This document shows, one piece after another, positions 1-22,746 of a stretch of DNA of 64,000 nt. The stretch lies in NCBI GenBank assembly GCA_049799515.1, contig JBARIA010000143.1, positions 7,708 through 71,707 of the forward strand. Reading direction: 5' to 3'. Below the pieces are notes generated by a model that searched no databases, was not told the origin of the DNA, and saw only the letters and a list, made by a program, of their open reading frames with translations. The position numbers and the translations under genes were made by a program. Each line of letters opens with the position of its first letter. Positions within the stretch are counted from its first letter, which is position 1. The stretch is from Candidatus Dormiibacterota bacterium. GTDB lineage: Bacteria > Chloroflexota > Dormibacteria > Aeolococcales > Bog-877.

Positions 1-441
1 TTTAGCGAAAAGCAGGTGCGGCCGATGGGTCGGGACACTCAGGGGGTCACGGCCGTCCGCCTCCGCGGCAACGATCTGGTGGCGGGGGCAGACATCGTGC
101 GCCCCGAGGGCCATGTGCTGGTGGTGACTCAGAACGGCTTTGGCAAGCTGACTCCGGTCTCTGACTACCCGGTCAAGAGCCGGGCGATCCAGGGCGTCTA
201 CACCCTCGACCAGCATGCCATTTCCAAGGTCGGTGAGATCGTGGGGATGACGATCGTCGAGGACCTTTCCGATGAGCTGATGCTGATCAGCACCCGAGGT
301 CAGATCATCCGCATTCCCCTGGAGGGGGTGAGGATCTCCAGCCGCCAGACTCGCGGGGTGATCCTGATGCGCCTGGACGATGGGGACCTGGTCGGCTCGA
401 TCGCCGGTGTGGCTCCTCCCGGCGACCTCGAGGAGGAGTAG
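1..441 (+). CDS. gyrA: DNA gyrase subunit A, C-terminal fragment (gene starts upstream of window)
   Basis: In-frame from position 1. The translation (...RPMGRDTQGVTAVRLRGNDLV...LISTRGQIIRIPLEGVRISSRQTRGVILMRL...) matches the GyrA C-terminal beta-pinwheel blade repeats and acidic tail. Confidence 0.8.
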   Translation, partial: FSEKQVRPMGRDTQGVTAVRLRGNDLVAGADIVRPEGHVLVVTQNGFGKLTPVSDYPVKSRAIQGVYTLDQHAISKVGEIVGMTIVEDLSDELMLISTRGQIIRIPLEGVRISSRQTRGVILMRLDDGDLVGSIAGVAPPGDLEEE

Positions 442-524
442 CGGTCTCACCGGCTGGCGGCCCCGGCGTGCTCGGTTAGGCCAACCTGAGCCACATCCTC
501 TTCGAGCTGACCCACCTGCCAGCG

Positions 525-1109
525 GTGGGCATCTACGGCTTCCTCCTGTTTTGGCTGGCCGCCGAATCGGTGGGGGTCCCGCTGCCGGACGAGGCGGTTT
601 TGCTCACCGTGGGCTTCCTGGCCCATGAGGGCACGGTCCAGTTGGCTCCGGCGATGGCCTGCGCGGCCACCGGAGCGGTGATCGGGTCGACCATCTCCTA
701 CAACCTGGGGCTGCGTCTGGGGCGGCCGGTTGTGGCCAGGATCGTGGCCCGGGTCGGGATCCAAGGAGAGCGGCTGGAGAGCGCCGAGCACTGGATGCGG
801 CGCCGAGGAGGGGTCGGCGTCTTCCTCACCCGAGTTCTCCCGATCGCCCGTAACGTCGCCTCCTACGCGGCCGGCATCGCGGCGATTCCCCCCCGGGTCT
901 TCTACCCAGCCATGGTTGGTGGCTCGGTGCTCTGGTGCGTCACCGTCCTCTCGGTCGGGGACCTGGTCGGCGCCCATTACAAGGACATCCTTCGGGTGGG
1001 CGGCGTGGCCTTTCTGGGCGTGCTGGCGGCGGCGATCGTCGGAGTTATCGCCTGGCTGACCTGGGCCTGGATCAGGCGGCGCCGCACCGGGGCGCGCGGG
1101 TCGACATGA
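525..1109 (+). CDS. DedA/VTT-family membrane protein
   Basis: 194 aa, multi-TM, with the SNARE-associated/DedA core (LPDEAVLLTVGFLA...RVLPIARNVASYAAGIAAIP). A DedA gene downstream of gyrA is common in actinobacteria. Confidence 0.7.
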   Translation: MGIYGFLLFWLAAESVGVPLPDEAVLLTVGFLAHEGTVQLAPAMACAATGAVIGSTISYNLGLRLGRPVVARIVARVGIQGERLESAEHWMRRRGGVGVFLTRVLPIARNVASYAAGIAAIPPRVFYPAMVGGSVLWCVTVLSVGDLVGAHYKDILRVGGVAFLGVLAAAIVGVIAWLTWAWIRRRRTGARGST

Positions 1110-1178
1110 CCGCCCAAGGAAGCAGCCCTCTGGCAAGTGAGCCCTCCCCACCGATCTCGGGCTCGAAGCCGGTTCAGA

Positions 1179-1700
1179 TCAGGAGATCTCGGTCCTCAGC
1201 GGAGGCAGGTCCTCGGGCAGAGCCGCCCGAATCAGGACCAGTCGGCAGTGGGCATGGTTCAGCAGTTCGGTGCCGGTTCTTCCCAGGCTGAACTCGCCGA
1301 ACCTAGCCTTGGTTCCCAGCCCGACGACCATCAGGTCGGCTTCCCATCGCCGGGCCTCGTCGATGATCGCGGGCCCGGCCTCACGGGCCTGGAGCACGGT
1401 GGTCTGGACCTTAGATTCCAGGCTAGTGGCGACCTCCTCCATGCCCACCAGCACCTCCTCGGCCCGACCGAGCTCGCCACCCAGGCTGGCCGAAAGCGGC
1501 AGATTGCGAGCGACCTCGAGGACGGTGATCACCAGGATGTCGGCCTTGGCTGGTCGGGCCAGTCGGCAGGCGGCCTTGAGGGCGTCCGTGTCGGCCGGCT
1601 CGCCGCGGACCGGAACCACAATTCGGCGGGGCCAGAGAATGCCCGAGCGCTCGCCGGTGGGCGCGCCCGTGGGTCGGGAGCGAAAGATCCTCGAGGTCAT
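1179..1700 (-). CDS. Universal stress protein (UspA family)
   Basis: 173 aa with the UspA fold signature (RIVVPVRG...ILVITVLE...ADLMVVGLGTK..GSV..LNHAHCRLVLI). Confidence 0.75.
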   Translation of the reverse strand: MTSRIFRSRPTGAPTGERSGILWPRRIVVPVRGEPADTDALKAACRLARPAKADILVITVLEVARNLPLSASLGGELGRAEEVLVGMEEVATSLESKVQTTVLQAREAGPAIIDEARRWEADLMVVGLGTKARFGEFSLGRTGTELLNHAHCRLVLIRAALPEDLPPLRTEIS

Positions 1701-1907
1701 CTAGAGCCATTGTCGCCGCTCTGAGCGACGCTGGTCTGCTCTCCCGCGAACTCTCCCGGCGTCCGAGCCCGGAGTCTTCCCGCAACCTAGCGGTCTTCAG
1801 CCACCGGTGCCCATTCTTGAACTGTCTAGGCCCGCCGACTCAGGTTGTGATCCGGGATTACTCAGGGAGGCCTCAAACCGCCTCTGCGATCGGGGATATA
1901 CTCGCGG

Positions 1908-2371
1908 CCGTGAAGGTGGTGATCGTAGGGTGTGGCCGGGTGGGCTCCACCCTGGCCCGAGACCTGGCCCACGATGGCCACGATGTCAGCATCGTCGACA
2001 TCTCCCGGCGGGCCTTCGACCGGCTCGGTGCGGACTTCCCTGGGCAGGCGGTCCTGGGCAGTGGCATCGATCAGGAGATCCTGGAGCAGGCCGGTGCCGA
2101 GAAGGCGGACTGCTTCATCTCCGTCACCAACGGGGACAACCGCAACATCATGTCGGCCCAGGTCGCCAGGGAGATCTTCAAGATTCCCCGCGTCATGACC
2201 AGGATCTACGACCCGATCCGGGAACGGGTCTACCGGGAGATGGGGCTTTACACGTTCTGCCCCACGGTGGTGGGTGCGGCGATCGCCCGCACCTTCTTCG
2301 AGGGCGGACCGGACGAGGCGGATCGGGCCCGCCACGCGGTGGCCGCGTCGGGGGCGTCCGGAGGTGCCTGA
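1908..2371 (+). CDS. TrkA-N (RCK N-terminal) NAD-binding K+ transport regulatory protein
   Basis: Rossmann motif VKVVIVGCGRVGSTLARDL with acidic D35-like residue. GTG at 1908 is the likely start; the track ORF begins earlier at 1817. Its stop overlaps the start of the next TrkA gene. Confidence 0.7.
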
Positions 2372-3047
2372 CCGGCCCGGCTACATCATCGTGATCGGAG
2401 CTGGCAAGGTCGGCTTCTATTTGACCCGCCACCTCCTCGAGGGTGGGTATGAGGTGGCTCTAATCGAGAAGGACCCGGGTCGAGCGGCCATGGTGGCCGC
2501 CCAGTTGGGCAGCTGCGCCAGCCTGGTCGGCGACGGGGATGAGATGGCCTTTCTGGCCACCAGCGGCATCGAGCGAGCCGACGTGGTGGCGGCGGTCACC
2601 GGGGACGACGAGGACAATCTGGTCGCCTGCCAGCTGGCCAAGCGCCAGTTCAAAGTGCCCCGGACCATCGCCCGGGTGAACAACCCCAGGAACGTACAGC
2701 TCTTCCATCAGCTTGGGGTGGATGTCGCTGTATCGGCGACCGAGCTAATCCTGGGCGTGATCGAGAGCGGGCTCGCCACTCACGGAGACGTGCTCCAGAT
2801 TCCGATGGGCGGCAGCAAGGCATCGCTGGTCCGGGTGACCGTGCCGGTGGGCGCGGCAGTGGGCCGGCAGGCGAGCGAAATCACCGACCTGGCTGCCGAG
2901 CGGCTCCTCCTGATTGTGCGCAACGGCCGGGAGATTCCCTCCGAAACGCCGCTCGAAGCCGGGGATCAGATCGTGCTCTTTACTCAGCGCCCAGCTTCGG
3001 ACTTCATGCTGGAGGTGCCGGAGCTGGCTTCTCCGGTGACCCGCTGA
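2364..3047 (+). CDS. TrkA-N + TrkA-C (RCK) domain protein
   Basis: IIVIGAGKVGFYLTRHL Rossmann motif plus a C-terminal TrkA_C-like segment (VRVTVPVGAAVGRQASEI...ERLLLIVRNGREIPS..PLEAGDQIVLFT). GTG start at 2364 overlaps the upstream stop (GTGCCTGA). Confidence 0.75.
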   Translation: MPDRPGYIIVIGAGKVGFYLTRHLLEGGYEVALIEKDPGRAAMVAAQLGSCASLVGDGDEMAFLATSGIERADVVAAVTGDDEDNLVACQLAKRQFKVPRTIARVNNPRNVQLFHQLGVDVAVSATELILGVIESGLATHGDVLQIPMGGSKASLVRVTVPVGAAVGRQASEITDLAAERLLLIVRNGREIPSETPLEAGDQIVLFTQRPASDFMLEVPELASPVTR

Positions 3048-4431
3048 GACCCGCTTTCCCCAGCTCGCCATAGCGCTCCCACAGCCTCCCCACCGCCTGC
3101 ATCCCTCGGAAGAGCTGGTTCAGGACCACCCGCTCGTTGGGAGCGTGGATTCGATCCCCGGGAAGCCCCACCCCCAGGAGCACACAGGGAATGCCTAGCT
3201 CCTCGGAGATCGACGCCACCGGGGGGATGCTGCCGCCTTCCCGGATGTAGCGCGTCTCCTGTCCCCAGATCTCCTCCAGGACCTCGGCGGCGACTCTCAC
3301 CGCAGGGTGGTTCGAGGGAGTAAGCACCCAGCTGCCGGTTGAGATTGTCTGGAACTCGATTCGGACTCCCGGGGGGGCGATCTGACGCAGATACGCCTCG
3401 ACCAACACAGTCACCCGGTCGGTCTTCTGGTTGGGCACCAGCCGGGAGGAAAGCTTGGCGGCGGCCCGGGCCGGGATCACTGTCTTGGAGCCCTCCCCCT
3501 GATACCCGCCCCAGATTCCGCAGAGCTCCATGGTCGGGCGGACAGTCCGACGCTCGGCGGTGCTGAACCCGGCCTCGCCGCCGAGCACCACAGCGGGCTC
3601 AGCGGCGAACTCCCGCTCATCGAAGGGAATTGCCGCGATCTCCGCTCGCTCCGGATCGCTCAGCTCCACGACATCGTCGTAGAAGCCGGGCACCGCCACC
3701 CGGCCGTCCGCATCGTGAAGCCTGGCCACCATCTCCGCGAGCACCGTGATCGGATTGAGGACTGCCCCGCCGAAGACTCCCGAGTGGAGGTCGGTCGAGG
3801 CGGCCTCCACATGTAGCTCCCAGTAGGCGAGGCCCCGGAGGCCCACCGTCAGGGCTGGGACGGTCTCAGCCGGCATTCCGGTGTCGGAGATCACTGCGAC
3901 ATCCGCCTGCAGTCGGTCGCGATGCTCGACCAGCAGCTCCGCGAAGTGTTCCGACCCGTTCTCCTCCTCTCCCTCGGCGATCAGCTTGAGGTTGATCGGG
4001 AGCTTCCCCCGGGCATTGAGGTAGCCGCGGAGCGCCTCCAGGTGCATGGCCAGGTGACCCTTGTCATCGGCCGTACCACGCCCCAGCAGCTGTCCGTCTC
4101 GCTCGAGTGCCTCGAAGGGCGGCTTGTCCCACTCAGCGACCGGATCGACCGGCTGGACGTCGTGGTGGCCGTAAACCAGGATGGTGGGGAGGAGCGGGTC
4201 CTCGATTCGCTCGGCGAACACCGCCGGATGCCCGGCGGTATCCCAGACCTCAGCGACTGGGAAGCCGGAGTCGAGAGCCGCCTGACGCAGGAACGCCGCT
4301 GAGCGACGCACCTCCGGGGCCCGCTCGGGATCGGCGCTGACCGATGGGATGGCCACCCAGCGGGTGAGCGTGCCGACCAAATCTCGCTCTCGGCCCTGAA
4401 TGGCCGCGGCGAGATCGTCTACCGGCCTCAC
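3004..4431 (-). CDS. M20-family dipeptidase (ArgE/DapE/PepV-like)
   Basis: 475 aa with HHDVQP, GRGTADDKG and EGEEENGS metal-binding and catalytic motifs typical of peptidase M20. Confidence 0.8.
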   Translation of the reverse strand: MRPVDDLAAAIQGRERDLVGTLTRWVAIPSVSADPERAPEVRRSAAFLRQAALDSGFPVAEVWDTAGHPAVFAERIEDPLLPTILVYGHHDVQPVDPVAEWDKPPFEALERDGQLLGRGTADDKGHLAMHLEALRGYLNARGKLPINLKLIAEGEEENGSEHFAELLVEHRDRLQADVAVISDTGMPAETVPALTVGLRGLAYWELHVEAASTDLHSGVFGGAVLNPITVLAEMVARLHDADGRVAVPGFYDDVVELSDPERAEIAAIPFDEREFAAEPAVVLGGEAGFSTAERRTVRPTMELCGIWGGYQGEGSKTVIPARAAAKLSSRLVPNQKTDRVTVLVEAYLRQIAPPGVRIEFQTISTGSWVLTPSNHPAVRVAAEVLEEIWGQETRYIREGGSIPPVASISEELGIPCVLLGVGLPGDRIHAPNERVVLNQLFRGMQAVGRLWERYGELGKAGLSGSPEKPAPAPPA

Positions 4432-4480
4432 CAGCCCCGGGTCCTCGCCGCAGCGAGGCCCGGGCCGAGTGAGAAGGCCC

Positions 4481-4630
4481 TCAGGCCGCCTTCCCGATCT
4501 TGAAGATCTTGGTTCCGCAGACGGGGCAGGTACCGGTTGTTGCCGGCTTGCCGTTCTTCAGTTGCGTTGGCTGGGGGTTGGAAATCTCCCGCGCCGTCTT
4601 GCACTTCATGCAAAAGCCGGTAACGGCCAT
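4481..4630 (-). CDS. Small zinc-ribbon protein (DUF5679-like)
   Basis: 49 aa, MAVTGFCMKCKTAREISNPQ...TCPVCGTKIFKIGKAA, with a CxxC...CxxC pair. ATG at 4630 is preceded by a GGAGGGG Shine-Dalgarno. The track ORF is longer, but its N-terminal part is low-complexity. Confidence 0.55.
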   Translation of the reverse strand: MAVTGFCMKCKTAREISNPQPTQLKNGKPATTGTCPVCGTKIFKIGKAA

Positions 4631-4787
4631 CTTGGTACCCCTCCGCTGGAAGTAGAGCCCGAACTCGGAAGCAGGGCGATCAGCCGCATTGTATTCACCA
4701 ACTCGACTTCCCGCAACCTCAAACACATATTGGCCTTCAGACGGAAGCCCGCGCCCCGGTCCTTTTGGGGTGCTGCTGGAAGCCAAT

Positions 4788-5612
4788 TCAGGCCTCTTCC
4801 GCCTGAGATCGCCTTTGCCGCTCAAGCCATCCGAAAAGACCGGCGGCGTTGGAGCTTATGCCGTTGAGCGTGTCCGCCGCCGGTTGCCGGCCTGGTTCCC
4901 CGCCTCCCTGCGGGCCCAGGCGCTCCCGAAGTGCCTTTTCGATGTGATCTAGTTCGGGGCGCTCTCGGTAGGCGTCCTGGGCGATCGTGGCCCAGCTGCG
5001 CAGCTTCTCCTCCGCCTCGTGCAGCACCTCCTCCGGTTCTCCGGCGGAGCCGTAGTGGGTCAGGATCAACTGGCTCGGGCGAAGCTCGAGGAATCTGTGC
5101 AGGGAGCCGATCGCCAACTCCAGATCGAAGTCGTCCGGTGGTGTCGCCGGTCGCAGAGGACCCGCCCCGGGCACCTTCACTCCCACCGCGTCGCCGACCA
5201 TAAGCACCCCCGAATCCGACTCCAACACTCCGATGTGGTGCTTGGCGTGCCCAGGGGAGTGGACCAGCCTCAGCTGCCTGCCCCGGCCCAACTCGATCAC
5301 CCCTCCGTCCTCGGCGGCCACCAGGCGGTCGGGGTCGACCGCGGTCATCCTGCCGTAGAGAGAATCGAGCCGGGTGCCGTACACATGAGCCGCGGCGTTG
5401 ATCAGGCGCGCGGGGTCAGCCAGGTGGCGCAACCCACGGGGATGACACACCACCTTTGCCTTGGGAAACCGCAGGGCAATCTGCCCCACCGCACCGGCGT
5501 GGTCGAGGTGGATGTGGGTCAGCACCACCCAGGCGAGGTCGTCAGCGGCGAGTCCGTGCCGGGCGAGGCCAGCTAGAACCTGATCGACGTCGCGCTGAGG
5601 ACCGGTCTCCAC
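4788..5612 (-). CDS. MBL-fold metallo-hydrolase
   Basis: HxHxDH motif (THIHLDHAG), downstream HSPGH, and a C-terminal helical extension. The N-terminus probably extends upstream of the annotated ATG (see findings). Confidence 0.75.
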   Translation of the reverse strand: METGPQRDVDQVLAGLARHGLAADDLAWVVLTHIHLDHAGAVGQIALRFPKAKVVCHPRGLRHLADPARLINAAAHVYGTRLDSLYGRMTAVDPDRLVAAEDGGVIELGRGRQLRLVHSPGHAKHHIGVLESDSGVLMVGDAVGVKVPGAGPLRPATPPDDFDLELAIGSLHRFLELRPSQLILTHYGSAGEPEEVLHEAEEKLRSWATIAQDAYRERPELDHIEKALRERLGPQGGGEPGRQPAADTLNGISSNAAGLFGWLERQRRSQAEEA

Positions 5613-13834: not shown

Positions 13835-14352
13835 CCGACGAGAGCGGATCCGGGCTCAGTCACCTGGACACCCGGGGCAAGGCGCGGATGGTCGACGTCG
13901 GCGACCGGCCCAGCACCGACCGCGAGGCGACGGCGGAGGGTGAGGTTCGGCTCAACCGGTCTGCCTGGGCGGCCATCTCCGAAGGGGCCGTCACTAAGGG
14001 TGACGTCCTGGAGGTGGCCCGGTTGGCGGGGATCATGGGTGCCAAGCGCACCGCTGAACTGATCCCGCTCTGCCACCCGCTCACCTTGACCCACGTGGCT
14101 GTCGAGGCAGAGTTGGCCAGCGGGCCCGATCGGGTTCAGCTGCGGGCGACCGTCCGCTGCCACGGCACCACTGGTGTTGAGATGGAGGCGCTGACCGCGG
14201 TAAGCGTCGCCGCCCTGACCGTGATTGACATGGTCAAGAGCCTCGATCCGTGGGCGGAGATCGGCCCGATCGCGTTGCTGGCAAAGCGCGGCGGGCGCTC
14301 CGGTGAAGTCCACCGACCCGGTTCCGGCGCCGAGTCAGGGGGGGCCGGCTGA
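13831..14352 (+). CDS. moaC: Cyclic pyranopterin monophosphate synthase accessory protein MoaC
   Basis: [19 protein letters not shown] and [20 protein letters not shown] are canonical MoaC motifs. Confidence 0.9.
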
Positions 14353-14353
14353 G

Positions 14354-16150
14354 GTGGTCGCTGTGGCCCGGTCGGGAGCTGCGCGCGAACGAGAGCTCAG
14401 AGAGCTTCTCTACCTGCAGAAGCTGGCGGTGGAGGCGGCCTCGACCATGGAGCGCGACGAGCTCTTCTCACTGGTGCTCAGGGAGACTACCGGCGTCCTG
14501 GAGGCTGATGTCTGCTCGCTCTATCTGTACGACCAGGCTCGCGAGGGCTTGGTCTTGACCGCCACCAACGGGCTCAACCAGGCGGCCGTGGGCAAGGTGG
14601 TGCTCGCTCCCGGCAAGGGGATCACCGGAGCGGTGGCGGCCTCCCGTGAGCCGCTCTCGGTCGCCGACGTGGCCACCGATCCGCGCTTCGAGTGGATCGA
14701 GGGCCTCGATGAGGAGCGGTTCACCTCGATGCTGTCGGTCCCGATCCTGGCCGGTCCGCGCATGGTCGGGGTCCTCGACGTCCAGACGGTCGATCGCCGC
14801 GAGTTCCGTCCCGACGAGCTGGCCGTCCTCTCGGCGATTGCGGGCGCTCTGGCAGGGGTGCTGGAGCGAAGCGAGTTACAGCACCGGTTGGAGCAGCAAC
14901 TGGTCGAGATCCAGCTCTCCCAAACCGTGCATGAGCGCTTCACCGAGCTGGCGCTTTCCGGAGCCGGTCTGCCCAAGATCCTCGACGCCATCGCGGGCCT
15001 GGCCGGCGGCGAGGTCGGACTCTACGATCCGCTGGGATTCCACCTGGAGCATGGCGCCGGTCGGGGCCTCGCGGCTCGCCGACTAGCGATCCCCACCTCG
15101 CTCACCGGACCAGCCTCCGCCGGCTTGGTCGGAATCAGCCTGACCCGCCCTCGACTTGACCTCATCCTGACCCCGGTGCGCGCCGGCGAGGAGCTGGTGG
15201 CGGTGTTGGCGGTCGAGGGCACGGTGGCCACCGCCGGCTCGGGCAAGCGTCGGGCTATGGAACACGGCGCCACCGTGGTAGCGCTGGAGCTGCTCAAGGA
15301 GAGGGCGGCTGCCGAGGTGGAGCGCCGCCTACGCGGAGACCTCCTGGAAGGGCTGCTCACCCCCGGGCAGAGCCCCGATGACATCGCCCGCTTGGCGGTG
15401 CGGGCAGAGCGGCTTGGTTACCGGATTCCCGACCAGGCCTGGGTGCTCGTGCTGGAGCCAGACGACGAACGAACCCTGGGAAAATTTCAGACCCAACCGC
15501 TCCAGGAGCGGCTGCAGCGCGATCTCAACGAGCTGACCCAGCGCCGGTTCCCCGGTTCCTTGGTGGTGGCCCGAGCCACCTATTCAGTGCTCCTGATCCC
15601 GGCCCGGGCCGCCGCTCCCAAGAACGGCGCGGCCGAGCCTTCGCCTTCGGGCCTGGAGGAGTTCTCGAGAACCGTTTTGGCGCTGACCCAGGGGTTGGGA
15701 AGGCGGCTCGGCTTCTCGGTCGGCATGGGCAATCTGGCAGCCTCGGCCTTGGAGCTCTCCAGGGCCCATGAGGAAGCCCGGCAGGCATTGCGGCTTTCCC
15801 GCCGCGCCGGAGGTGCCGGGCAGGTCACCTCCTATCGCTCCCTGGGAGCCCTCCGGCTGCTCTTGGAGGTCCGCGACACCGACGTCCTGCGTCGGTTCGT
15901 CGACGAGACCCTGGGGCCCATCCTTGCCTACGCCCAGCGCCATCGAACCCCGCTGCTCTCCACTCTGGAGGCGCTGGTGGCCCAGCGCTGGAATCAGCGT
16001 GCGGCCGGCCGCCAACTGCACGTGCACATCAACACCCTGGCCTATCGGCTGCAGCGAATCGAGGACCTCCTCGGTGCCTCGCTGGACGATGCGGAGACCA
16101 GGGTGGTGCTGAGCGTCGCCCTGCAGGCCAGGCAGCTACTCGCCGGCTGA
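14354..16150 (+). CDS. GAF-domain / PucR(CdaR)-family transcriptional regulator
   Basis: N-terminal GAF (CSLYLYD...GITGAV...DP.F.....ERF.SMLSVPI) and a C-terminal PucR-type HTH (QLHVHINTLAYRLQRIEDLLG). GTG start immediately after the moaC stop. Confidence 0.75.
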   Translation: MVAVARSGAARERELRELLYLQKLAVEAASTMERDELFSLVLRETTGVLEADVCSLYLYDQAREGLVLTATNGLNQAAVGKVVLAPGKGITGAVAASREPLSVADVATDPRFEWIEGLDEERFTSMLSVPILAGPRMVGVLDVQTVDRREFRPDELAVLSAIAGALAGVLERSELQHRLEQQLVEIQLSQTVHERFTELALSGAGLPKILDAIAGLAGGEVGLYDPLGFHLEHGAGRGLAARRLAIPTSLTGPASAGLVGISLTRPRLDLILTPVRAGEELVAVLAVEGTVATAGSGKRRAMEHGATVVALELLKERAAAEVERRLRGDLLEGLLTPGQSPDDIARLAVRAERLGYRIPDQAWVLVLEPDDERTLGKFQTQPLQERLQRDLNELTQRRFPGSLVVARATYSVLLIPARAAAPKNGAAEPSPSGLEEFSRTVLALTQGLGRRLGFSVGMGNLAASALELSRAHEEARQALRLSRRAGGAGQVTSYRSLGALRLLLEVRDTDVLRRFVDETLGPILAYAQRHRTPLLSTLEALVAQRWNQRAAGRQLHVHINTLAYRLQRIEDLLGASLDDAETRVVLSVALQARQLLAG

Positions 16151-16202: not shown

Positions 16203-16658
16203 GTGATGTTGCAGCCCGGTAACCAAGTACCCGACTTCACGCTTCAGGCGGGCAACGGCCAGACCGCCGATACCACCGAACTGCGCGGCCAGCGCTGGGT
16301 TATCTACTTCTACCCCAAGGACAACACGCCCGGCTGCACCATCGAGACGGGAGAGTTTGGCCGCTCCTTGCCGGACTTTTTCAAGCAGGGGGTGCAGGTC
16401 TTCGGCTGCTCGGTCGGCGATGTCGAGGCAAAGACCAAGTTCGCCGAGGCCTGCGGCGCTCCCGACCTGCCGTTGCTCGCCGATCCGGACCATCACGTCG
16501 CCGAGCTCTTCGGGGTCTGGAAGTCCAGTCCGGATGGTCCTTCGGGGGGAGTGGCTCGGGCCACCTTCCTGGTGGATGGGGACGGCAGGATCGAGCGGGC
16601 CTGGGAGTCAGTCAAACCGGCGGGTCACGCCGCCGAGGTGCTGGCGGCAGTCAGCTAG
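16203..16658 (+). CDS. bcp: Thiol peroxidase / peroxiredoxin Bcp
   Basis: 151 aa. VPDFTL...YFYPKDNTPGCTIE peroxidatic Cys motif and resolving Cys (FGCSVGD). Confidence 0.85.
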   Translation: MMLQPGNQVPDFTLQAGNGQTADTTELRGQRWVIYFYPKDNTPGCTIETGEFGRSLPDFFKQGVQVFGCSVGDVEAKTKFAEACGAPDLPLLADPDHHVAELFGVWKSSPDGPSGGVARATFLVDGDGRIERAWESVKPAGHAAEVLAAVS

Positions 16659-16975
16659 TACAGCGGTCCGCAAATAGCTTGGCGATTACGCGGCGGGAGG
16701 ACGATGGCTACATGGCCAATCGTGCTGCTCGCGCCCTCCTTCTCGACGACGACAGCCGGACGGCCCTGACCGCCTGACAGGGAGTCGGAACCTGCCGCAC
16801 CGCCAGGTTCGGCGCGCCCAGATAGTGCTCCAGGCCGCAGAGGGCATCCCCAACTCGACGATCGCCGAGCAGCGCCACTGTTCCGTTGCCACAGTGCTGC
16901 TCTGGCGCCAGCGTTTCCAGGACACCGCGATGTCCGGCTCGGAAGAGAACGCCCCGGAAGTTGACCGGAATTTGG
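16659..16975 (+). mobile_element. IS630-family element, 5' fragment (about 0.3 kb; transposase N-terminal HTH remnant)
   Basis: About 90% nucleotide identity to 20308-20625. Both copies begin CTAGTACAG(C/T)GG and encode MANRAARALLLDDDSRT.LTA(stop), then in the -1 frame ...HRQV.RAQI.LQAAE.I.N.TIAEQ..CS..TVLLWRQ.FQDT... The similarity decays after about 16975. Confidence 0.6.
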
Positions 16976-17040
16976 CGAACTCGACCTCCAGGTCTTCTCC
17001 CCGACGCCGGGGCGGAGCGGGGCCGCACCTATCATGACCT

Positions 17041-17580
17041 ATGACACCACTATCGCTTGACAAGACACCACTATGGTGGCATCATGGTGCCATGGAGCTC
17101 GGACAGTACGTCAGCGACCTGCAGCGCCAGTTAGTGGATGCCGCGGCGATCGGCGTGGAGAGCACTCGTGCCGCCGCCGAGCGACTCGCCGGCGGACTGG
17201 ATGCCGCGACGCGGCTCGTGTTATTCGACGCCCTGTCGGCTGCGGTCGGCGAAATCACCCGCGACCTCGCGCCTGGCTCGGTTGACATGCGGCTGCGCGG
17301 ACGCGAGATCGAGTTCGTGGTTACCCAGCCGAACACGGAGCCTGACGCCGACGAGCGGCGCGCTGCAACCGTCGACCTCGACGACGCGAGCACCTCGCGC
17401 ACGACGCTCCGCCTGCCGGACGCCATCAAGGCGCGGGTGGACGAGGCGGCAGCGGCTGACGGCCTGTCCATCAACGCATGGCTGGTCCGTGCGATTGCGG
17501 ACGCTCTCCAACCCAAGCAACGGCGATCTGCACAGCGCACGCTGCGCACCGGCGATAACTTCGCGGGCTGGGTGCGCTAA
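17041..17580 (+). CDS. Hypothetical protein with C-terminal ribbon-helix-helix (CopG/HicB-antitoxin-like) tail
   Basis: 179 aa. The C-terminus (TTLRLPDAIKARVDEAAAADGLSINAWLVRAIADAL) resembles RHH DNA-binding motifs. Lies upstream of a DUF4097 gene. Confidence 0.5.
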   Translation: MTPLSLDKTPLWWHHGAMELGQYVSDLQRQLVDAAAIGVESTRAAAERLAGGLDAATRLVLFDALSAAVGEITRDLAPGSVDMRLRGREIEFVVTQPNTEPDADERRAATVDLDDASTSRTTLRLPDAIKARVDEAAAADGLSINAWLVRAIADALQPKQRRSAQRTLRTGDNFAGWVR

Positions 17581-17660
17581 CCCGCTCAGCCCACCACATC
17601 CACCAGCCACGCGGACCCGCGGGGTCGGACAAAGACGCCCACAGAAGGGAAAGCCTCAGC

Positions 17661-18506
17661 ATGCCCACCTACAACACCCCCACCCCAATCGACCTCGCCA
17701 TCAACTTGCAAGTCGGCGGGATCGAGGTCTTCGCTGGTGACCGCGCCGACACGGTCGTGACCGTGTCGGCCAGTAACCCGGTGAAGGCGACTGACCGCCG
17801 AGGCGCGGAGGAGACCAAGGTCGACTTCGACGGCCAGCGGCTCACCATTGCGGGCCCGCGGCCTCGCATCAGCTGGCTCGGCCCAACCGAGTCGGTCGAC
17901 GTGAAGGTTGAGCTGCCAACGGGGTCGCGGCTCACCGCCGAGATTGCGCTCGGCAGCCTGCGCACCGTCGGACGCCTTGGCGCCACCCGCGTCAAGAGCT
18001 CGTTTGGTCCCGTGGATGTCGACACCACCGGCGACCTGTGGCTGCGCGCCTCGTACGGCAACGCGACTCTGGGTACCGCCGAGGGCGGGATCGAGGTCAC
18101 GGCCGACTTCGGTCAGATCCGGGTCGGCACGGTCACCGGCGACGCGATCCTCAAGGCGTCGTATGGCAGCATCCTGGTCGGGGAGTCTGGCGGCGACCTC
18201 GACGCCAAGCTCTCCTTCGGCGGCCTCGAGATCACCAAGGCGCTCGCCTCCGTTGCGGCGAAGATCGCGTACGGCGGCATCCAGCTGCGAGAGGTCTCGA
18301 GCGGTTCCATCCAGGTCGAGACCGGCGCCGGCCAGGTGACGATCGGGGTACGGCCCGGGGTCCCCGCCTGGCTCGACCTGTCCTCGAAGAAGGGGCATGT
18401 GCGCAACCAGCTCGCCGGCGACCGTGCTCCCGACGCGTCCGAGCAGACCATCGCCGTACGGGCGCGCACTGACTACGGGGACATCGACATCCAGCGCGCC
18501 CAATGA
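17661..18506 (+). CDS. DUF4097-family beta-strand-repeat protein (putative adhesin/LiaF-C-like)
   Basis: 281 aa of degenerate G-x-I-x-V repeats (GGIEVFAGD...GQIRVGTVTGDAILKASYGSILVGESGGDLDAKLSFGGLEIT...GSIQVETGAGQVTIGV) ending ...DYGDIDIQRA. Confidence 0.7.
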   Translation: MPTYNTPTPIDLAINLQVGGIEVFAGDRADTVVTVSASNPVKATDRRGAEETKVDFDGQRLTIAGPRPRISWLGPTESVDVKVELPTGSRLTAEIALGSLRTVGRLGATRVKSSFGPVDVDTTGDLWLRASYGNATLGTAEGGIEVTADFGQIRVGTVTGDAILKASYGSILVGESGGDLDAKLSFGGLEITKALASVAAKIAYGGIQLREVSSGSIQVETGAGQVTIGVRPGVPAWLDLSSKKGHVRNQLAGDRAPDASEQTIAVRARTDYGDIDIQRAQ

Positions 18507-18698
18507 GTTCAGGTAACCAACAGAAGGGAACAACACCCATGACCACCACAGCGATCGAAGCCCACTGGCCGCGGAAGTCCTACAGCGGAAAGATCGTGCT
18601 CGACGCAAGGTGCATCAGCACTACCCGCAGGGTCAGGGGCTCAGCCGGGATCGGGAAAGGCTGACCAACGCCATCGATCGCGTCGCCGGCAACGAACA

Positions 18699-19553
18699 GT
18701 GACCAAGGAGAGAACGGATATGCAGATGACGGCCGACCAGATCCAGGGGCCCGCGATCCAAGTGCAGGGGCTGGAGAAGTCGTACAAGAAGCTGGAGGTA
18801 CTGCGTGGCGTGGACTTCGACGTGGCGCGGGGCAGCATTTTCGCCCTGCTCGGCTCGAACGGGGCGGGCAAGACCACGGTCGTGAACATCCTGTCCACGC
18901 TGCTCAAGGCCAACGCGGGGACTGCCAGCGTCAACACCTTCGATGTCGCCACGCAGGCTGCGGAGGTTCGGGAGTCCATCAGCCTCACCGGACAGTTTGC
19001 AGCCGTGGACGAAATCCTCAGCGGGCGGGAGAACCTCATCCTGGTCGCCCGGTTGCGACACCTCAAGCACCCGGGCAGGGTCGCGGATGACTTGCTCAGT
19101 CGATTCTTGCTGACCGACGCGGCCGCTCGGAGGGTGGCGACGTATTCGGGTGGCATGCGCCGACGCCTCGACATCGCGATGAGCCTCATCGGGAGTCCGC
19201 CGGTCATCTTCCTCGACGAGCCGACAACGGGTCTCGACCCACAGGCGCGAATCGAGGTATGGCAGGCTGTCAAGGAACTCGCCGAGCATGGCACGACGGT
19301 GCTGCTGTCGACGCAGTATCTGGACGAGGCCGAGCAACTCGCCGACCGGATCGCGATCCTCCACGGGGGTCGGATCATCGTGAACGGCACCCTCACCGAG
19401 CTCAAGCGGCTGCTCCCGCCTGCCAAGGTCGAATACGTCGAGAAGCAGCCGACCCTCGAGGACGTCTTCCTCGCCATCGTCGGTGCCGACGGCAAGGACG
19501 GCGGCGGTGGCAACAACCACAGCGTCGTCACAGAGGCGAAGGAACAACGATGA
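18699..19553 (+). CDS. ABC-2-type transporter ATP-binding protein (DrrA-like)
   Basis: Walker A LGSNGAGKTT, signature YSGGMRRRLDIAMSL, Walker B IFLDEPTTGLD. The start may instead be the ATG at 18720. Confidence 0.85.
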   Translation: MTKERTDMQMTADQIQGPAIQVQGLEKSYKKLEVLRGVDFDVARGSIFALLGSNGAGKTTVVNILSTLLKANAGTASVNTFDVATQAAEVRESISLTGQFAAVDEILSGRENLILVARLRHLKHPGRVADDLLSRFLLTDAAARRVATYSGGMRRRLDIAMSLIGSPPVIFLDEPTTGLDPQARIEVWQAVKELAEHGTTVLLSTQYLDEAEQLADRIAILHGGRIIVNGTLTELKRLLPPAKVEYVEKQPTLEDVFLAIVGADGKDGGGGNNHSVVTEAKEQR

Positions 19554-20311
19554 CCCAGCATTTCTTCGGCGACACCACCGTCTTGCTGGGCCGGTCCATG
19601 CGTCACATCACGCGCAGTCTGGACACCATCATCACGGTCGCGATCATGCCGATCGCCCTCATGGTGCTGTTCGTCTACGTGTTCGGCGGCGCGATCAAAT
19701 CAGGTTCGCAGCCGTATGTGAACTACCTGCTGCCCGGAATCCTGCTCATCGCGATCGCGATGGGCATCTCCTACACCGCACTCCGGCTCTTCACGGATAT
19801 GCAAAGTGGAATCTTCGAGCGATTCCAGTCCATGCCGATTGCACGCTCGAGCGCGCTGTGGGCGCACGTGCTGACCTCAGTAGTCTCCGTCCTGATCTCG
19901 CTCGTGATCGTCGTGCTCGTTGCCCTCCTCATGGGTTTCCGCTCAGGCGCGGGAGTGCTGGCATGGCTTGCCGTCGCCGGCATCCTGATCGTGCTCACCC
20001 TGGCATTGACGTGGATCGCCGTCACCGCCGGCCTGTCGGCGAAGACCGCGGACGGAGCCGGCGCCTTCTCCTACCCGATCGTCTTCCTGCCATTCATAAG
20101 CTCGGCATTCGTTCCCACTCACACCATGCCCGGCCCGGTGCGCGCCTTCGCCGACAACCAACCCGTGACATCCATCGTCGACACGATCCGCGACTTGTTC
20201 ACACAGCGGCCGGTCGGCACCGAAGTCTGGGTCGCCCTTGCCTGGTGTGTCGGCATCCTCGTCGTCGCGTACAGCGTCGCCATGGTCATTTACCACCGCA
20301 GGATCTCCTAG
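19550..20311 (+). CDS. ABC-2-type transporter permease
   Basis: 253 aa, six predicted TM helices. ATGA overlap with the upstream ATPase stop. Confidence 0.8.
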   Translation: MTQHFFGDTTVLLGRSMRHITRSLDTIITVAIMPIALMVLFVYVFGGAIKSGSQPYVNYLLPGILLIAIAMGISYTALRLFTDMQSGIFERFQSMPIARSSALWAHVLTSVVSVLISLVIVVLVALLMGFRSGAGVLAWLAVAGILIVLTLALTWIAVTAGLSAKTADGAGAFSYPIVFLPFISSAFVPTHTMPGPVRAFADNQPVTSIVDTIRDLFTQRPVGTEVWVALAWCVGILVVAYSVAMVIYHRRIS

Positions 20312-21206
20312 TACAGTGGCCCACAAATAGCTTGACGACTAGGGGGCGGGAGGACGATGGCTACATGGCCAATCGTGCTGCTCGCGCCCTCCTTCTCGAC
20401 GACGACAGCCGGACGGACCTGACCGCCTGACACGGAGTCGGACCCTGCCGCACCGCCAGGTGCAGCGCGCCCAGATAATGCTCCAGGCCGCAGAGAGCAT
20501 CGCCAACGCAACGATCGCCGAGCAGCTCCACTGTTCCATTCCCACAGTGCTGCTCTGGCGCCAGCATTTCCAGGACACCGGGGTGTCCGACTTGGAAGAG
20601 GACGCCCCGGGATGTGGCTGGCCTCGGACCCACTATGAGCGGGTGGTCGGGAAGGGCATCAGCGCCACCCTGGGTTGTCCCCCAAGGGCGAGACCCATTG
20701 GTCGAGCCGGGAAGTCGCAGAGCGGGTCGGGGTCAGTAAGTCCACAGTGCTCCGGGTCTGGGGGGATCACGATCTCCAATCCCATCGAATCCGCGGCTTC
20801 AAGTACAGTACGGATCCTGAGCTGGAGCAGAAGCCCACCGATGTCGTCGGCCTCGACCTGTACCCCCCCAAGAAGGCGATGGTGCTCTGTGTCGATGATA
20901 AGTCACAGATCCAGGCCCTCGAAGGCACTCAGCCGCTGCTGCCGATGCGCCCCGGCCAGGTGGAGCGGCGCACCCACGACTACGTCCGTCACCGAACCGC
21001 CACCCTCTTCGCCGCCCTCGACTTCGCCACCGGAGAGGTGACCGGGGGACCTATGCCCGCCACCGCCACCAGGAGTTCCTCAAGTTCCTCCAACTCGTCG
21101 CCGGGCGCTATCCGCGGGGCCAGCTCCACCTCGTGCTCGACAACTACCGGATCCACAAGCACCCCTTCGTCTTGGTGAAGACCGCTGACCAGGTTCTACG
21201 CCGCTA
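20308..21206 (+). pseudogene. IS630-family transposase, degenerate (at least three frameshifts, 3'-truncated before the DDE domain completes)
   Basis: Pieces in three frames spell an IS630 transposase: HTH (AQIMLQAAESIANATIAEQLHCSIPTVLLWRQHFQDTG...), then ...[22 protein letters not shown]..., ...[53 protein letters not shown]..., then ...[36 protein letters not shown]... It ends at TAG 21206 with no 3' inverted repeat. Confidence 0.7.
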
Positions 21207-21279
21207 GAACCAGAGGCTTATTTCTGGACCGGTGCACTAGGCCCCACTCCGCGCAGCAGCACCGGGTCTCATCCCGAGA

Positions 21280-22746
21280 TCAGTCTTCACCCTGCGCCTT
21301 GGTGAACCCGCGCTCCCCATTGAACACCGGCAGCCGCTCGATATGCACCCAGCGGTGCTCCGGGGAGACCCGCTCCAGCAGGGCAATCACGTCGGTGTCC
21401 TGCAGGTCCCCCTTCAGGTCGCGAATCAGAAAGCGACAGGGCCAGTGGTCGATGCAGTCTGTGGTTGCCCCGCCGGTCGCCGGATATACCTGAGTGCCGC
21501 GGTTGCTGATGGTTTCCAGCTGCAGCGCGGTGCCCTTGGTGGCGGCTTCCAAGCTTTGCCCGAGGGCCTCCGGCGTGAGCTCCGATTCGATGAACAGGTC
21601 GATCCCGATGTCGTGCCGTTCCTCTGGATGTACCAAGGCGTATTCGGACGAGACCTGGGGAAGTTTCAGCGGATGATGCTCTCGACCCGACCAGTTGGGG
21701 GTGCGCTCCCCGAGGTGCGAGATGATCGCTTCGGTGTATTCGGTGGTGGAGGCAGCCGGTGCGCTACCGGCGATGTCCTGGGTCTTGACTCCCGACTCCA
21801 GGGTGAGCAGGATTGCGTGCTCGACCTTCTCAGCTGCCTCCACCTCATTCAGGTAGCGCAGCATCATGACCCCGGTGAGGATCAGAGCGGTGGGGTTGAT
21901 GACGTTCTTGCCGGCGTACTTGGGGGCGGAGCCATGCACCGCCTCGAAGATCGCCACGTCGTTGCCGATGTTTGCCGACGGTGCAAACCCCAGGCCACCC
22001 ACCAAAGCCGAGCTGAGGTCGCTGATGATATCCCCGTTCATGTTGGTGGTGACGATGACGTCGAATTGCTCCGGTCGCTTGACCAACTGGTGGGCGCAGT
22101 TGTCGATGATGATGTGATACGACTCGATGTCCGGATACTCGGGAGCGATCTCCTCAAAGGTGCGCTTCAGCAGTCCTTCGCTGAATTTCATGATGTTGGA
22201 CTTGGTCGCGCAGTGGACGGTGTGGCGGCTCTCTGAGCGGGCGAATTCGAAGCCCATGCGCACAATCTTTTCGCAGCCCTTACGGGAAATTAGCTTGAGA
22301 GATTCAGCTACCCCCGGGGTCTGCATGTACTCGATTCCCGCGTATAGGTCCTCGACGTTTTCGCGCACCACCACTAGGTCGATTCCCCGTCCGCTGTAAG
22401 GAGTGATGACTCCGGGGAGCTCACGCACGGGGCGGATGTTGGCATAGGTTTCAAAGAGTTTTCGCAGCGTCACGTTGGCACTCTTCTCGCCGAAGCCCAC
22501 TGGGGTTTCCAGTGGCCCCTTGAGCACGACGCCAGTGCGTCTCGCCGATTCGACAGTTTCGTGGGGTACGCCCGAGGGCAATCCCTGACGGAAGATGCTG
22601 GCCCCGGCTGGGTGCTCCTCCCAGTCGATAGGGGCCCCGGATGCCTCGATGACCGCCTTGGTGGCGTTGACCACCTCCGGGCCGATCCCATCCCCTGGGA
22701 TAAGCGTGACTAGCTTGCGATGAGAACCGGCTTGAGCCACAGGCAT
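21280..22746 (-). CDS. icd: Isocitrate dehydrogenase (488 aa, isocitrate/isopropylmalate DH family with C-terminal extension)
   Basis: LIPGDGIGPEV N-terminus and the substrate/metal motifs of beta-decarboxylating dehydrogenases (NMNGDIISD, GSAPKYAGK). Confidence 0.8.
   Translation of the reverse strand: MPVAQAGSHRKLVTLIPGDGIGPEVVNATKAVIEASGAPIDWEEHPAGASIFRQGLPSGVPHETVESARRTGVVLKGPLETPVGFGEKSANVTLRKLFETYANIRPVRELPGVITPYSGRGIDLVVVRENVEDLYAGIEYMQTPGVAESLKLISRKGCEKIVRMGFEFARSESRHTVHCATKSNIMKFSEGLLKRTFEEIAPEYPDIESYHIIIDNCAHQLVKRPEQFDVIVTTNMNGDIISDLSSALVGGLGFAPSANIGNDVAIFEAVHGSAPKYAGKNVINPTALILTGVMMLRYLNEVEAAEKVEHAILLTLESGVKTQDIAGSAPAASTTEYTEAIISHLGERTPNWSGREHHPLKLPQVSSEYALVHPEERHDIGIDLFIESELTPEALGQSLEAATKGTALQLETISNRGTQVYPATGGATTDCIDHWPCRFLIRDLKGDLQDTDVIALLERVSPEHRWVHIERLPVFNGERGFTKAQGED

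Follow-up and report, generated by a model that had tools for sequence, protein, structure and literature searches.

Positions 16658 to 21237 of the window, the whole 64-kb stretch of metagenome-assembled Dormibacterota sequence analysed here, probably constitute a single non-autonomous compound transposon of the IS630 family, 4.6 kb long and mobilised in trans. Its passenger DNA lies between two copies of one insertion sequence (IS), the outer ends form an inverted pair, a target duplication surrounds the whole unit, the site is intact in relatives, and the unit occurs at several locations. Beyond this assignment we lean, with confidence only a little above even, towards a still-mobile element, made of one full IS and a 318-bp stub, that is spread by a helper through uncultured Dormibacterota and ferries a toastrack/ABC efflux module derived from Actinomycetota.

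Insertion site

The unit lies between bcp and icd (Table 1), the product of the latter being 78-91% identical in amino acids to Dormibacterota orthologues. The gene order HAD-icd><bcp-PucR is kept in all 15 Dormibacterota relatives compared (L001-L015, MAGs or metagenome contigs), in which the matches to icd and bcp are 32-343 bp apart and a search of this gap returned neither the cassette genes nor the IS. By this synteny comparison, which the first-pass annotation had proposed and which came out as it expected, the cassette is not native to the interval between bcp and icd.

The bcp orthologues in these relatives finish in GTCAGCTAG or GTCAGTTAG. The empty site reads ...GTCAGCTAG plus the spacer, and the window reads ...GTCAGC-TA-[G...C]-TA-G, where the unit in brackets has base-exact edges and the 39-nt spacer that follows can be aligned to that of L001. 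The block thus described sits within the single TA of the CTAG at the bcp stop codon, with TA in CTAG at both outer ends. The bcp stop, correctly placed at 16656-16658 from the outset, consists of the target TA and the first G of the IS. On the other side icd had been thought to abut the IS; instead, a TA and the native spacer of 39-40 nt (21238-21279) intervene.

Table 1. Features of the unit and of its native flanks, in window coordinates
Feature	Start	End	Strand	Basis or remark
bcp (AhpC/TSA peroxiredoxin), native left flank	16206	16658	+	Pfam AhpC-TSA 2.3e-30
Left copy of duplicated target TA	16656	16657		within CTAG 16655-16658
Left IS630-family stub	16658	16975	+	nt 1 to about 318 of 1130-bp element
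56-nt filler at stub-cassette junction	16976	17031	+	alignment, junction sequences
Promoter-like site	17043	17093	+	TTGACA at 17057, 17-nt spacer, TG-CATCAT to 17085
RHH protein (HicB/YlcI-like C-terminal ribbon-helix-helix), 162 aa	17092	17580	+	weak Pfam; 162-aa calls in relatives
DUF4097/toastrack beta-helix protein, 281 aa	17661	18506	+	PF13349 weak; homologues DUF4097
Remnant of ABC ATPase gene 5' end (about 23 codons), 'Arthrobacter-type'	18539	18664	+	L083 identity
ABC ATPase, DrrA-like	18720	19553	+	ABC_tran 3.5e-27; alternative start GTG 18699
ABC-2 permease, 253 aa	19550	20311	+	ABC2_membrane 6e-19
Right IS630-family copy, 927 bp, both ends present	20311	21237	+	blastn to L082 IS
Right copy of duplicated target TA	21238	21239		within CTAG 21237-21240
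Native bcp-icd spacer, 39 nt	21241	21279		L001 spacer equally long, alignable (by eye)
icd (isocitrate dehydrogenase, bacterial C-terminal domain), native right flank	21280	22746	-	Iso_dh 6e-110, PF18324 6.5e-27

Structure of the IS copies

The two direct repeats (16655-16954 and 20308-20607) are 91% identical without gaps, close to the 90% first estimated, and alignment extends the similarity to about 16975 and 20625. The 21-nt end motif GTACAGYGGYCCRCAAATAGC occurs at 16658 and 20311 and nowhere else in the 64 kb (chance expectation 0). Against the full 1130-bp element of the composite copy L082, blastn places the stub, whose left inverted repeat is 16658-16681, at nucleotides 1-311 (16658-16968, 87%). 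The right copy aligns to nucleotides 1-857 (20311-21165, 92%) and 1049-1130 (21156-21237, 95%) of the same element. It has a left (20311-20334) and a right (21214-21237) inverted repeat, and so departs from the initial description, in which neither copy had a 3' inverted repeat and the right one was 3'-truncated: its end is present and about 200 internal bp are missing instead. The deletion, at 21156-21165, fell between two copies of the 10-bp repeat CAAGCACCCC and takes away the end of the DDE domain. The last nucleotides of the right copy, ...GCTTATTTCTGGACCGGTGCAC (to 21237), match the left end in inverted orientation, and the outer ends of the unit pair up (GTACAGCGGTCCGCAAATAGC against the reverse complement GTGCACCGGTCCAGAAATAAGC). 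The full element is 1130 bp long in L082 and has a length of about 1.13 kb in L161; counted by eye, its two ends agree at about 21 of 24 terminal positions.

An IS630 N-terminus is encoded by both copies, as first proposed: the protein reconstructed from the right copy matches the IS630 family transposase model NF033545 (E=8e-47, 160 bits; cutoff 100), and the transposase reading frame of L082 contains HTH_23, HTH_32 and DDE_3. An HTH plus DDE_3 transposase, TA duplication, terminal inverted repeats and a length of ~1.0-1.4 kb are the features of the IS630 family, and all are found here. The right-copy transposase is dead, with a frameshift at W22, two further frameshifts and the internal deletion, and its pieces are recovered by tblastn in three frames. 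Relative to the intact P0130, one G is missing from codon W22 in all six IS copies that lie inside composites; because this deletion is common to all six, stub and full copy derive from a single IS that was already defective.

No intact IS copy was found in the 64-kb window. An intact relative, a 359-aa protein, is 94% identical to the transposase of the L082 composite copy, and an intact solo IS of about 1.13 kb lies in L161, with its TA within CTAG at the stop codon of a PIN gene. All named relatives of the transposase come from Dormibacteria MAGs (60-94% amino acid identity) and, on these matches, the IS lineage is Dormibacterota-specific. The first-pass annotation could not name the element; since the right inverted repeat and the TA/CTAG duplication frame the whole unit, a compound (composite) IS630-family transposon fits.

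Copies at other sites

Copy L082 holds the whole unit at 92% identity, with CTAG on either side and unrelated surrounding DNA; both outer junctions of one copy are visible there and in the window only. Five left flanks are distinct (window, L082, L081, L150 and L167), as are three right flanks (window, L082 and L155). The stub breakpoint and the 56-nt filler are common to all stub-bearing copies, the filler being missing from the IS-less cassettes L088 and L154, and the ABC-gene remnant is common to all close copies. Every clean junction has a CTAG context, which matches the target preference of IS630 elements; the left outer junction is CTGG, not CTAG, in L081 and L150. Because the identical arrangement of stub, filler, cassette and IS stands at other sites on other contigs, the unit would have arrived at bcp-icd pre-assembled. 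Of the first-pass reading, the IS630 repeats and the foreign cassette delimited by IS sequence therefore stand, and the old local insertion, later 'split or reused', does not; the right inverted repeat and the TA/CTAG duplication had been missed.

It is very improbable that the cassette was resident in, or delivered to, the interval between bcp and icd and there received two independent IS630 insertions, the left of which lost its 3' part. Independent insertions would predict that both the outer and the inner left IS ends lie at CTAG stop codons, as they do at bcp and the permease gene (the permease stop, TAG at 20309-20311, likewise combines TA with the initial G of an IS). However, they would not account for the same stub breakpoint, filler and W22 frameshift at other loci, nor for the lack of the cassette at this site in 15 of 15 relatives, and the native spacer directly follows the TA of the right IS, which leaves no room for a separately delivered cassette.

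Identity between copies is strongly mosaic: to L082 and L155 it varies from 85% (permease) to 99.6%, with DUF4097 at 99%, and dS along the unit runs from 0.06 to 0.3. Judging by this pattern, the copies are clearly being shaped by homologous recombination as well, and such recombination could have delivered the cassette. A solo IS630 would then have hit the bcp CTAG first, and a composite elsewhere would have served as the template from which stub, filler and cassette were copied in, through gene conversion or homologous recombination, crossovers falling within nucleotides 1-318 of the IS and within its remainder; the choice of site would be owed to the IS and the cassette to recombination, in place of whole-unit transposition. 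Identical end structure and TA/CTAG flanks would be expected, solo insertions of such an IS do occur at the CTAG of stop codons, and the 5' IS fragments show no clean clustering by left or right position. We nevertheless regard this course of events as unlikely, given that it requires a resident solo IS at no fewer than five sites and the same conversion each time, that a solo IS at bcp-icd is seen in 0 of 15 relatives, and that transposition by the outer ends takes one step.

In the preferred reading, transposition of the whole unit, the stub would give the left inverted repeat alone and the second, same-orientation copy the right one. Transposase from an intact relative elsewhere, in a helper assumed to be in the genome, would bind both outer ends, excise the 4.6-kb unit and paste it into the TA of the bcp stop CTAG, duplicating the TA. 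The unit would have been assembled once, elsewhere, in a Dormibacterota genome. In the order of steps that we infer, the permease gene of an acquired operon of actinobacterial type received an IS at its CTAG stop, and a stub of this defective IS ended up upstream of the operon.

Cargo operon

The cassette had been described as an RHH, a DUF4097 and ABC-2 exporter genes, and Pfam agrees, weakly for the first two and strongly for ABC_tran and ABC2_membrane. The RHH protein matches HicB (4.6e-4) and RHH_1 (1.2e-3), both just below cutoff, and NF041551 at 5.6e-7 (29.5 bits; cutoff 30); PDB sequences gave no match to it. An upstream ATG at 17041 would give a 179-aa alternative, and the gene calls in L081, L082 and L154 are of 162 aa. 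Two pairs of direct repeats overlap the promoter-like site (GACACCACTAT twice, 21 nt apart, and ATGGTGSCAT twice, 11 nt apart), and the region is conserved in L081, L082, L088 and L154. From this layout, the repeats are probably the operator of the RHH protein, which is itself probably the repressor of the operon.

The DUF4097 protein matches PF13349 at 3.3e-4 (20.5 bits, below the 22.9 cutoff), and its homologues carry precomputed PF13349 assignments and are named DUF4097. Its AF2 model is all-beta (pLDDT 81), with 4QRK as the best PDB fold match (E 1.2e-4), then 3PET, 4OPW and 3LJY, at TM-scores of just 0.2-0.47; 4QRK and 4OPW are toastrack fold examples cited in PMC11237479. No hydrophobic segment was seen when its sequence was read by eye. 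The ABC ATPase matches TIGR01188 (drrA) at 3.9e-82 (275.9 bits; equivalog cutoff 312), and the permease matches TIGR00025 (DrrB family) at 7.5e-22 and TIGR01247 (DrrB) with 38 bits (cutoff 223). With both proteins under the curated TIGR01188 and TIGR01247 cutoffs, we rejected a DrrAB equivalog and call the pair DrrAB-like. The 41-codon ORF reported earlier does exist, but it is not a gene of its own: 85% nucleotide identity to L083 extends through 18605, into the first about 70 nt of the L083 ABC gene (MTTTAIEAHWPRKSYSGKIVLD versus MNTPAIEVRGLRKSYGGKTVLD), which marks it as the remnant of such a gene.

The cargo evolves under purifying selection, with dN/dS of 0.2-0.4 overall (RHH 0.22-0.40, DUF4097 0.22-0.27, ABC ATPase 0.28-0.40, permease about 0.3), no stops and no frameshifts. 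As an operon it would be self-contained, promoter and operator included, and its products would be a repressor of the RHH type, a toastrack protein located in the cytoplasm and an ABC-2 exporter resembling DrrAB. Its most likely role, with substrate and regulation predicted from sequence, is inducible export of a lipophilic toxic compound or antibiotic.

Origin of the cargo

Among proteins 80-89% identical to the DUF4097 protein, the named members come from Arthrobacter, Dermatophilaceae and Homoserinimonas, and positions 17013-18605 are 85% identical in nucleotides to an Arthrobacter-type contig. Operons of the cargo type are found on Tsukamurella and Streptomyces replicons, and the order RHH, DUF4097, ABC ATPase and ABC-2 permease recurs in L083-L131 and in plasmid matches. 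A Dormibacterota MAG protein sits in the 90%-identity cluster of the closest homologues of the window DUF4097. IS-less versions of the cassette are 91.8% (L154) and 89.3% (L088) identical; L154 is a Dormibacterota contig, with a flanking PQQ protein 84-88% identical to Dormibacterota MAG proteins, and its sequence at the permease stop, ATCTCCTAGTAGACC, is plausibly the pre-insertion site. The best reading of these matches is that the cargo is a foreign, actinobacterial-type operon that was horizontally acquired, and the transfer would have run from such an operon into Dormibacterota.

A cargo of actinobacterial type, in an uncultured phylum whose retrieved relatives are MAGs or metagenome contigs, might also arise in assembly, if the repeated IS had made a chimeric join that put an actinobacterial cassette into a Dormibacterota contig. 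We give this almost no credence: both outer junctions are base-exact transposition junctions and restore the empty-site sequence, an outcome that a chimeric join would not give; a 9% difference between the two repeats would keep them from collapsing in assembly; independent assemblies carry the same unit; and the clustered Dormibacterota MAG protein and the Dormibacterota-like flanks of the IS-less L154 count against an artefact as well.

Relation to known systems

With IS630/ISY100 elements of the IS630/Tc1/mariner superfamily the IS shares an HTH plus DDE_3 transposase, a length of about 1.1 kb, inverted repeats and TA duplication; unlike them, it has no functional copy in the window, and its sequence relatives all come from Dormibacteria MAGs. 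Compound transposons as such are well known from textbooks. In Tn5, Tn10 and Tn9, and in pseudo-compound units with one truncated IS, the target duplication frames the whole unit as it does here, and the passenger genes move because the two IS ends farthest out can be used as a pair. The window unit differs from Tn5, Tn10 and Tn9 in its transposase family, in IS copies that are direct and not inverted, and in having a stub as one arm, which may leave the inner ends unable to compete.

Tn630-NC1 of Nitrosomonas communis was reported as the first IS630-family composite transposon (PMC11544213, Sci Rep 2024). Both of its IS copies are full-length, at 888 bp, and its description comes from one degenerate genomic copy; the authors state that no IS630-type compound transposon had previously been reported, and theirs is the only report found in our literature search for compound transposons of the IS630/Tc1/mariner group. 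Both units have an IS630-family element on either side of a few passenger genes, a TA-type duplication and inactivating indels in both IS components. However, one arm of the window unit is a 318-bp stub with a single inverted repeat rather than a full IS, five left and three right flanks and 15 empty sites stand against a single copy, and the cargo is an operon of efflux type, where Tn630-NC1 carries VapE, AntA-AntB and BrnTA genes. By analogy, the stub arm may fit the 'asymmetric ends' idea of PMC11544213.

Actinobacterial RHH-Toastrack-ABC ATPase-permease operons were described by comparative genomics (PMC11237479, mSystems 2024), and DUF4097 with DrrAB-like pairs (Lun25-27) occurs in Streptomyces depsipeptide gene clusters (PMC9866976). 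These operons, for none of which a function has been demonstrated, share the four-gene architecture and the DrrA/DrrB-like transporter with the window cargo. The toastrack protein of a related GntR-type operon is described as membrane-anchored (PMC11237479), whereas that of the window has no visible hydrophobic segment, and the window operon is a chimera with the stub of a second ABC gene, in another phylum and inside a transposon.

The window unit would be the second IS630-type example and, beyond what was available for Tn630-NC1, it offers an empty site in relatives, a target duplication that encloses the complete unit, and insertions at several independent places. If this reading is true, it is the first compound transposon of IS630 type for which movement is evident from several sites, and the comparative evidence suggests that a short IS stub suffices as the second end of such an element. 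For annotation it is of practical use that a CTAG-seeking IS lands on TAG stops in high-GC genomes, so that genes seem to 'abut' IS ends and are undisrupted. The unit would also be one of the few vehicles documented for adaptive gene flow in the candidate phylum Dormibacterota, and may show how a metagenome-only phylum gains and redistributes an actinobacterial-type export/resistance operon.

Results

A genome scan with the isocitrate dehydrogenase (icd) protein returned Candidatus Dormibacterota orthologues at 78-91% amino acid identity, so the window belongs to a Candidatus Dormibacterota genome. The gene order HAD-icd><bcp-PucR was found in all 15 Dormibacterota loci retrieved, with 32-85 bp between the icd and bcp matches (343 bp in one), and in none of these gaps was there a match to the cassette genes or the insertion sequence (IS). 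In the closest relative the bcp end reads ...GTCAGCTAG, and a 39-nt spacer comes next. In the window the corresponding sequence is ...GTCAGC-TA-[16658...21237]-TA-G; after it comes a spacer, also of 39 nt, that can be aligned to that of the relative. The reconstructed empty site is GTCAGCTAGGCCCC. Because the native spacer follows and the TA (CTAG) is repeated at the outer ends, the whole 4580-bp block appears to be a single insertion at the TA within the CTAG of the bcp stop codon, and bcp retains its TAG stop because the first base of the element is G. The icd stop, which the first-pass annotation placed directly against the IS, is separated from it by TA and a spacer of 39-40 nt.

Two features of the flanking genes are recorded here for completeness. 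In the icd product the Iso_dh core is followed by PF18324, the C-terminal domain of bacterial IDH, an architecture whose relatives were retrieved from many phyla at 66-71% identity. The PucR-type regulator upstream of bcp is syntenic in 15/15 Dormibacterota relatives.

Coordinates and features of the unit, its flanks and related loci
Locus	Feature	Position (strand)	Description
Window	PucR-type regulator	14225-16150 (+)	GAF + GGDEF-like + PucR-HTH; directly upstream of bcp
Window	bcp		AhpC/TSA; left flank of unit
Window	Stub	16658-16975	Left IS630 piece
Window	Filler	16976-17031	56 nt
Window	First cassette gene		Weak RHH/HicB-like C-terminus
Window	Second cassette gene		DUF4097 protein, 281 aa
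Window	Short ORF		41 codons
Window	ABC ATPase		DrrA-like, 277 aa (window-type)
Window	ABC-2 permease		253 aa (window-type)
Window	Right IS	20311-21237	IS630 family
Window	icd	21280-22746 (-)	488 aa; right flank, convergent with bcp
L082	Complete unit		92% nt identity; CTAG both sides; DNA unrelated to bcp/icd
L082	Right IS ORF	3832-4920	362 aa; HTH_23 + HTH_32 + DDE_3
L081	Stub-bearing copy	Junction 3837-3840	Distinct left flank; CTGG
L150	Stub-bearing copy	Junction 75-78	Distinct left flank; CTGG
L167	Stub-bearing copy		Distinct left flank; CTAG
L155	Right IS present		Third distinct right flank
L155-L159	IS3-family element (HTH_Tnp_1 + rve)	L155 76-1232; L157 115-873; starts of L156, L158, L159	In place of stub except its last ~45 nt
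L161	Solo intact IS	About 611-1743	~1.13 kb
L162, L163	Two IS630-family transposase genes	155-4080; 124-4049	357 aa (-) and 359 aa (+)

The two direct repeats described in the first pass are real: 16655-16954 and 20308-20607 align without gaps at 91% identity, and similarity extends to about 16975 and 20625 before it ends abruptly. A 21-nt terminal motif occurs at just two sites in the window, one per repeat, against a chance expectation of zero, and no additional copy of the IS was found within the 64 kb. As had been noted, the left copy is truncated, and it covers the IS from nt 1 to about nt 318. The right copy had been described as 3'-truncated and lacking a 3' inverted repeat; both of its ends are nevertheless present, and it closes with ...GCTTATTTCTGGACCGGTGCAC at 21237, whose reverse complement matches the left end, GTACAGYGGYCCRCAAATAGC. 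What is missing is internal. Relative to the full-length 1130-bp IS of the metagenome contig L082, the aligned segments are IS nt 1-857 and 1049-1130, and the ~200 bp between them are lost between two copies of the decamer CAAGCACCCC, whose presence at both edges indicates a slippage-type deletion. This loss takes away the end of the DDE domain, and three frameshifts additionally break the reading frame. The reconstructed transposase passes the NCBIfam IS630 model.

An intact solo relative on contig L161 is 94.5% identical to the right IS of the composite and codes for P0130, a transposase of 359 aa from a cluster with 97 member sequences. The solo element lies at the stop codon of a PIN-domain gene, with TA within CTAG as its flanks. 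Three genes thus carry this IS on a stop-codon CTAG (bcp, the ABC-2 permease and the PIN-domain gene), and in each the target TA together with the first G of the IS re-creates the TAG stop. In the window CTAG is about three-fold under-represented (69 observed, 196 expected from base composition), and TA occurs 806 times where 1754 are expected. Every named relative of the transposase (60-69% identity) belongs to a Dormibacteria MAG, so the IS is native to the phylum Dormibacterota.

One G is missing from codon W22 in all six composite-borne IS copies, relative to P0130 (MANRAAPALLLDDDSRTALTAWTRSRTLP...), so the stub and the full copy derive from one IS that was already defective. With such an ancestor, the unit would necessarily rely on a transposase supplied by a helper. 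Among the composites only L082 has a long transposase ORF, and this ORF exists because a second, upstream 1-nt deletion restores the frame lost at W22; its first 21 residues are scrambled (MMVPWPIVPLPPSS... instead of MANRAAPALLLDDD...). On contigs L162 and L163, two different IS630-family transposase genes lie in inverted orientation around one 340-aa ORF with no Pfam match, an arrangement that may be another IS630-bounded unit.

Metagenome contigs with the unit were reached via close DUF4097 homologues (95-97% identity). The stub breakpoint and the filler are common to every stub-bearing copy, and the remnant of a second ABC gene to all close copies. These shared features point to an arrangement that was built once and then spread, and its single origin would lie elsewhere than bcp-icd. 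Assembly in situ, in which the composite would have been put together at bcp-icd itself, is contradicted by the breakpoints shared with other loci and by an empty site that is restored to the exact base, and the same two observations contradict an artefact of sequence assembly.

The CTGG left junction is found in both L081 and L150, two copies with unrelated flanks, and could reflect an A-to-G change that occurred in parallel, insertion at a non-canonical target, or a junction not formed by transposition. The IS3/stub junction is identical across its five contigs, which come from different samples. A metagenome scan with the stub/filler junction TTGGCGAACTCGACCTCCAGGTCT gave 0 matches in a collection that evidently lacks the samples holding L081 and L082, and a second scan, with the DUF4097 protein, yielded mostly IS-less actinobacterial-type operons and one composite, L150. 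Exact database look-ups returned no record for the bcp and DUF4097 proteins of the window, and no contig was located for P0123, an NCBI Dormibacterota MAG protein. Six IS 5' fragments were clustered to separate a single formation from concerted evolution, and the intermixed identities were uninformative. The DNA upstream of two IS-less cassettes (L088 and L154), compared as a candidate source of the filler, had no similarity to it, and an origin of the stub by tandem duplication is hypothetical.

The cassette genes named in the first pass are present between the repeats. A very large set of soil-metagenome proteins matches the DUF4097 protein at 80-89% identity; its members with an organism name are from Arthrobacter, Dermatophilaceae, Homoserinimonas and 'Actinomycetota bacterium'. 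Positions 17013-18605 have 85% nucleotide identity to a contig of Arthrobacter type, on which the operon is RHH-DUF4097-ABC(314 aa)-permease(278 aa); the ABC genes of the two are only 66% identical. In metagenome relatives the RHH-DUF4097 pair is followed by either the Arthrobacter-type or the window-type (277 + 253 aa) transporter. The 41-codon ORF represents the first ~23 codons of an Arthrobacter-type ABC gene, a relic of an exchange of the transporter pair. In the plasmid database the four-gene operon is found on Tsukamurella and Streptomyces replicons, where its first gene is annotated as a HicB-family antitoxin, and the window-type transporter has 79% nucleotide identity in Streptomyces and Nonomuraea.

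The chimeric cassette is found without any IS in L154 (91.8%) and L088 (89.3%). The PQQ protein flanking it in L154 is 84-88% identical to Dormibacterota MAG proteins, so L154 is a Dormibacterota contig; the sequence at its permease stop, ATCTCCTAGTAGACC, plausibly represents the site as it was before the right IS inserted. All four cargo genes are intact in the window, with dN/dS of 0.2-0.4 against six other copies. The suggested comparison of GC content provided no useful marker, as the unit (0.61-0.70) does not contrast with its flanks. We infer that the cargo was transferred from Actinomycetota to Dormibacterota, because the operon is widespread in the former and absent from the syntenic site in the latter, and because vertical descent between phyla would leave an identity far below the observed 85-89%.

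Divergence from L082, L155 and L154 differs along the unit, from 97-99.6% identity (dS about 0.06) in DUF4097 (17655-18400) to 84-88% (dS about 0.3) in the permease (19400-20400). The window's unit appears to be a recombinant of differently diverged lineages.

Discussion

The outer ends of the unit match as a pair, the unit lies in a duplicated TA and occupies several sites, and it has an intact relative of helper type. We suggest that a transposase acting in trans would synapse the left repeat of the stub with the right repeat of the right IS, and that the whole 4.6-4.8 kb would then move by cut-and-paste, as for IS630/Tc1 elements. Since one of the inner ends is absent, there would be little competition for the outer pair. 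In the chief alternative, a solo IS arrived at bcp before the cassette, which was copied in later through homologous recombination with a composite at another locus. Such a history would leave the same final structure, and the copies are clearly recombining, with identity to L082/L155 ranging from 85% (permease) to 99.6% (DUF4097) and dS ranging from 0.06 to 0.3 along the unit. This route requires additional steps for every one of the five or more sites, and a solo IS at bcp-icd is present in no relative.

Transposition of the whole unit would make it a compound transposon, a classical kind of element, and we found no evidence for a new mechanism. The only report of an IS630-family compound transposon found in the literature concerns one degenerate element, 'Tn630-NC1' of Nitrosomonas communis, and says that there was no earlier report of such a transposon (PMC11544213, 2024). 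In contrast to Tn630-NC1, the Dormibacterota element has a 318-bp stub as one arm, multi-site evidence of movement together with an empty site in relatives, and an actinobacterial-type toastrack/ABC operon as cargo in a candidate phylum.

A defence-system reading of the cargo is unsupported, PADLOC having returned generic ABC-ATPase matches alone. The cassette has a promoter-like site of its own, overlapped by two direct-repeat pairs. AlphaFold predicts an all-beta repeat structure for the DUF4097 protein (pLDDT 81), with 4QRK, 3PET, 4OPW and 3LJY as best PDB matches at low TM-scores; 4QRK and 4OPW are examples of the toastrack fold in PMC11237479. PDB sequence searches with the RHH and DUF4097 proteins gave no match. 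An actinobacterial operon type consisting of an RHH regulator, toastrack protein, ABC ATPase and permease was already noted, and membrane-proximal sensing coupled to transport was proposed for it (PMC11237479). DUF4097 genes also adjoin DrrAB-like 'resistance' transporters in Streptomyces depsipeptide clusters. The cargo probably encodes an exporter of a toxic lipophilic compound under the control of a repressor, in which the toastrack protein would probably serve as a cytoplasmic adaptor or sensor.
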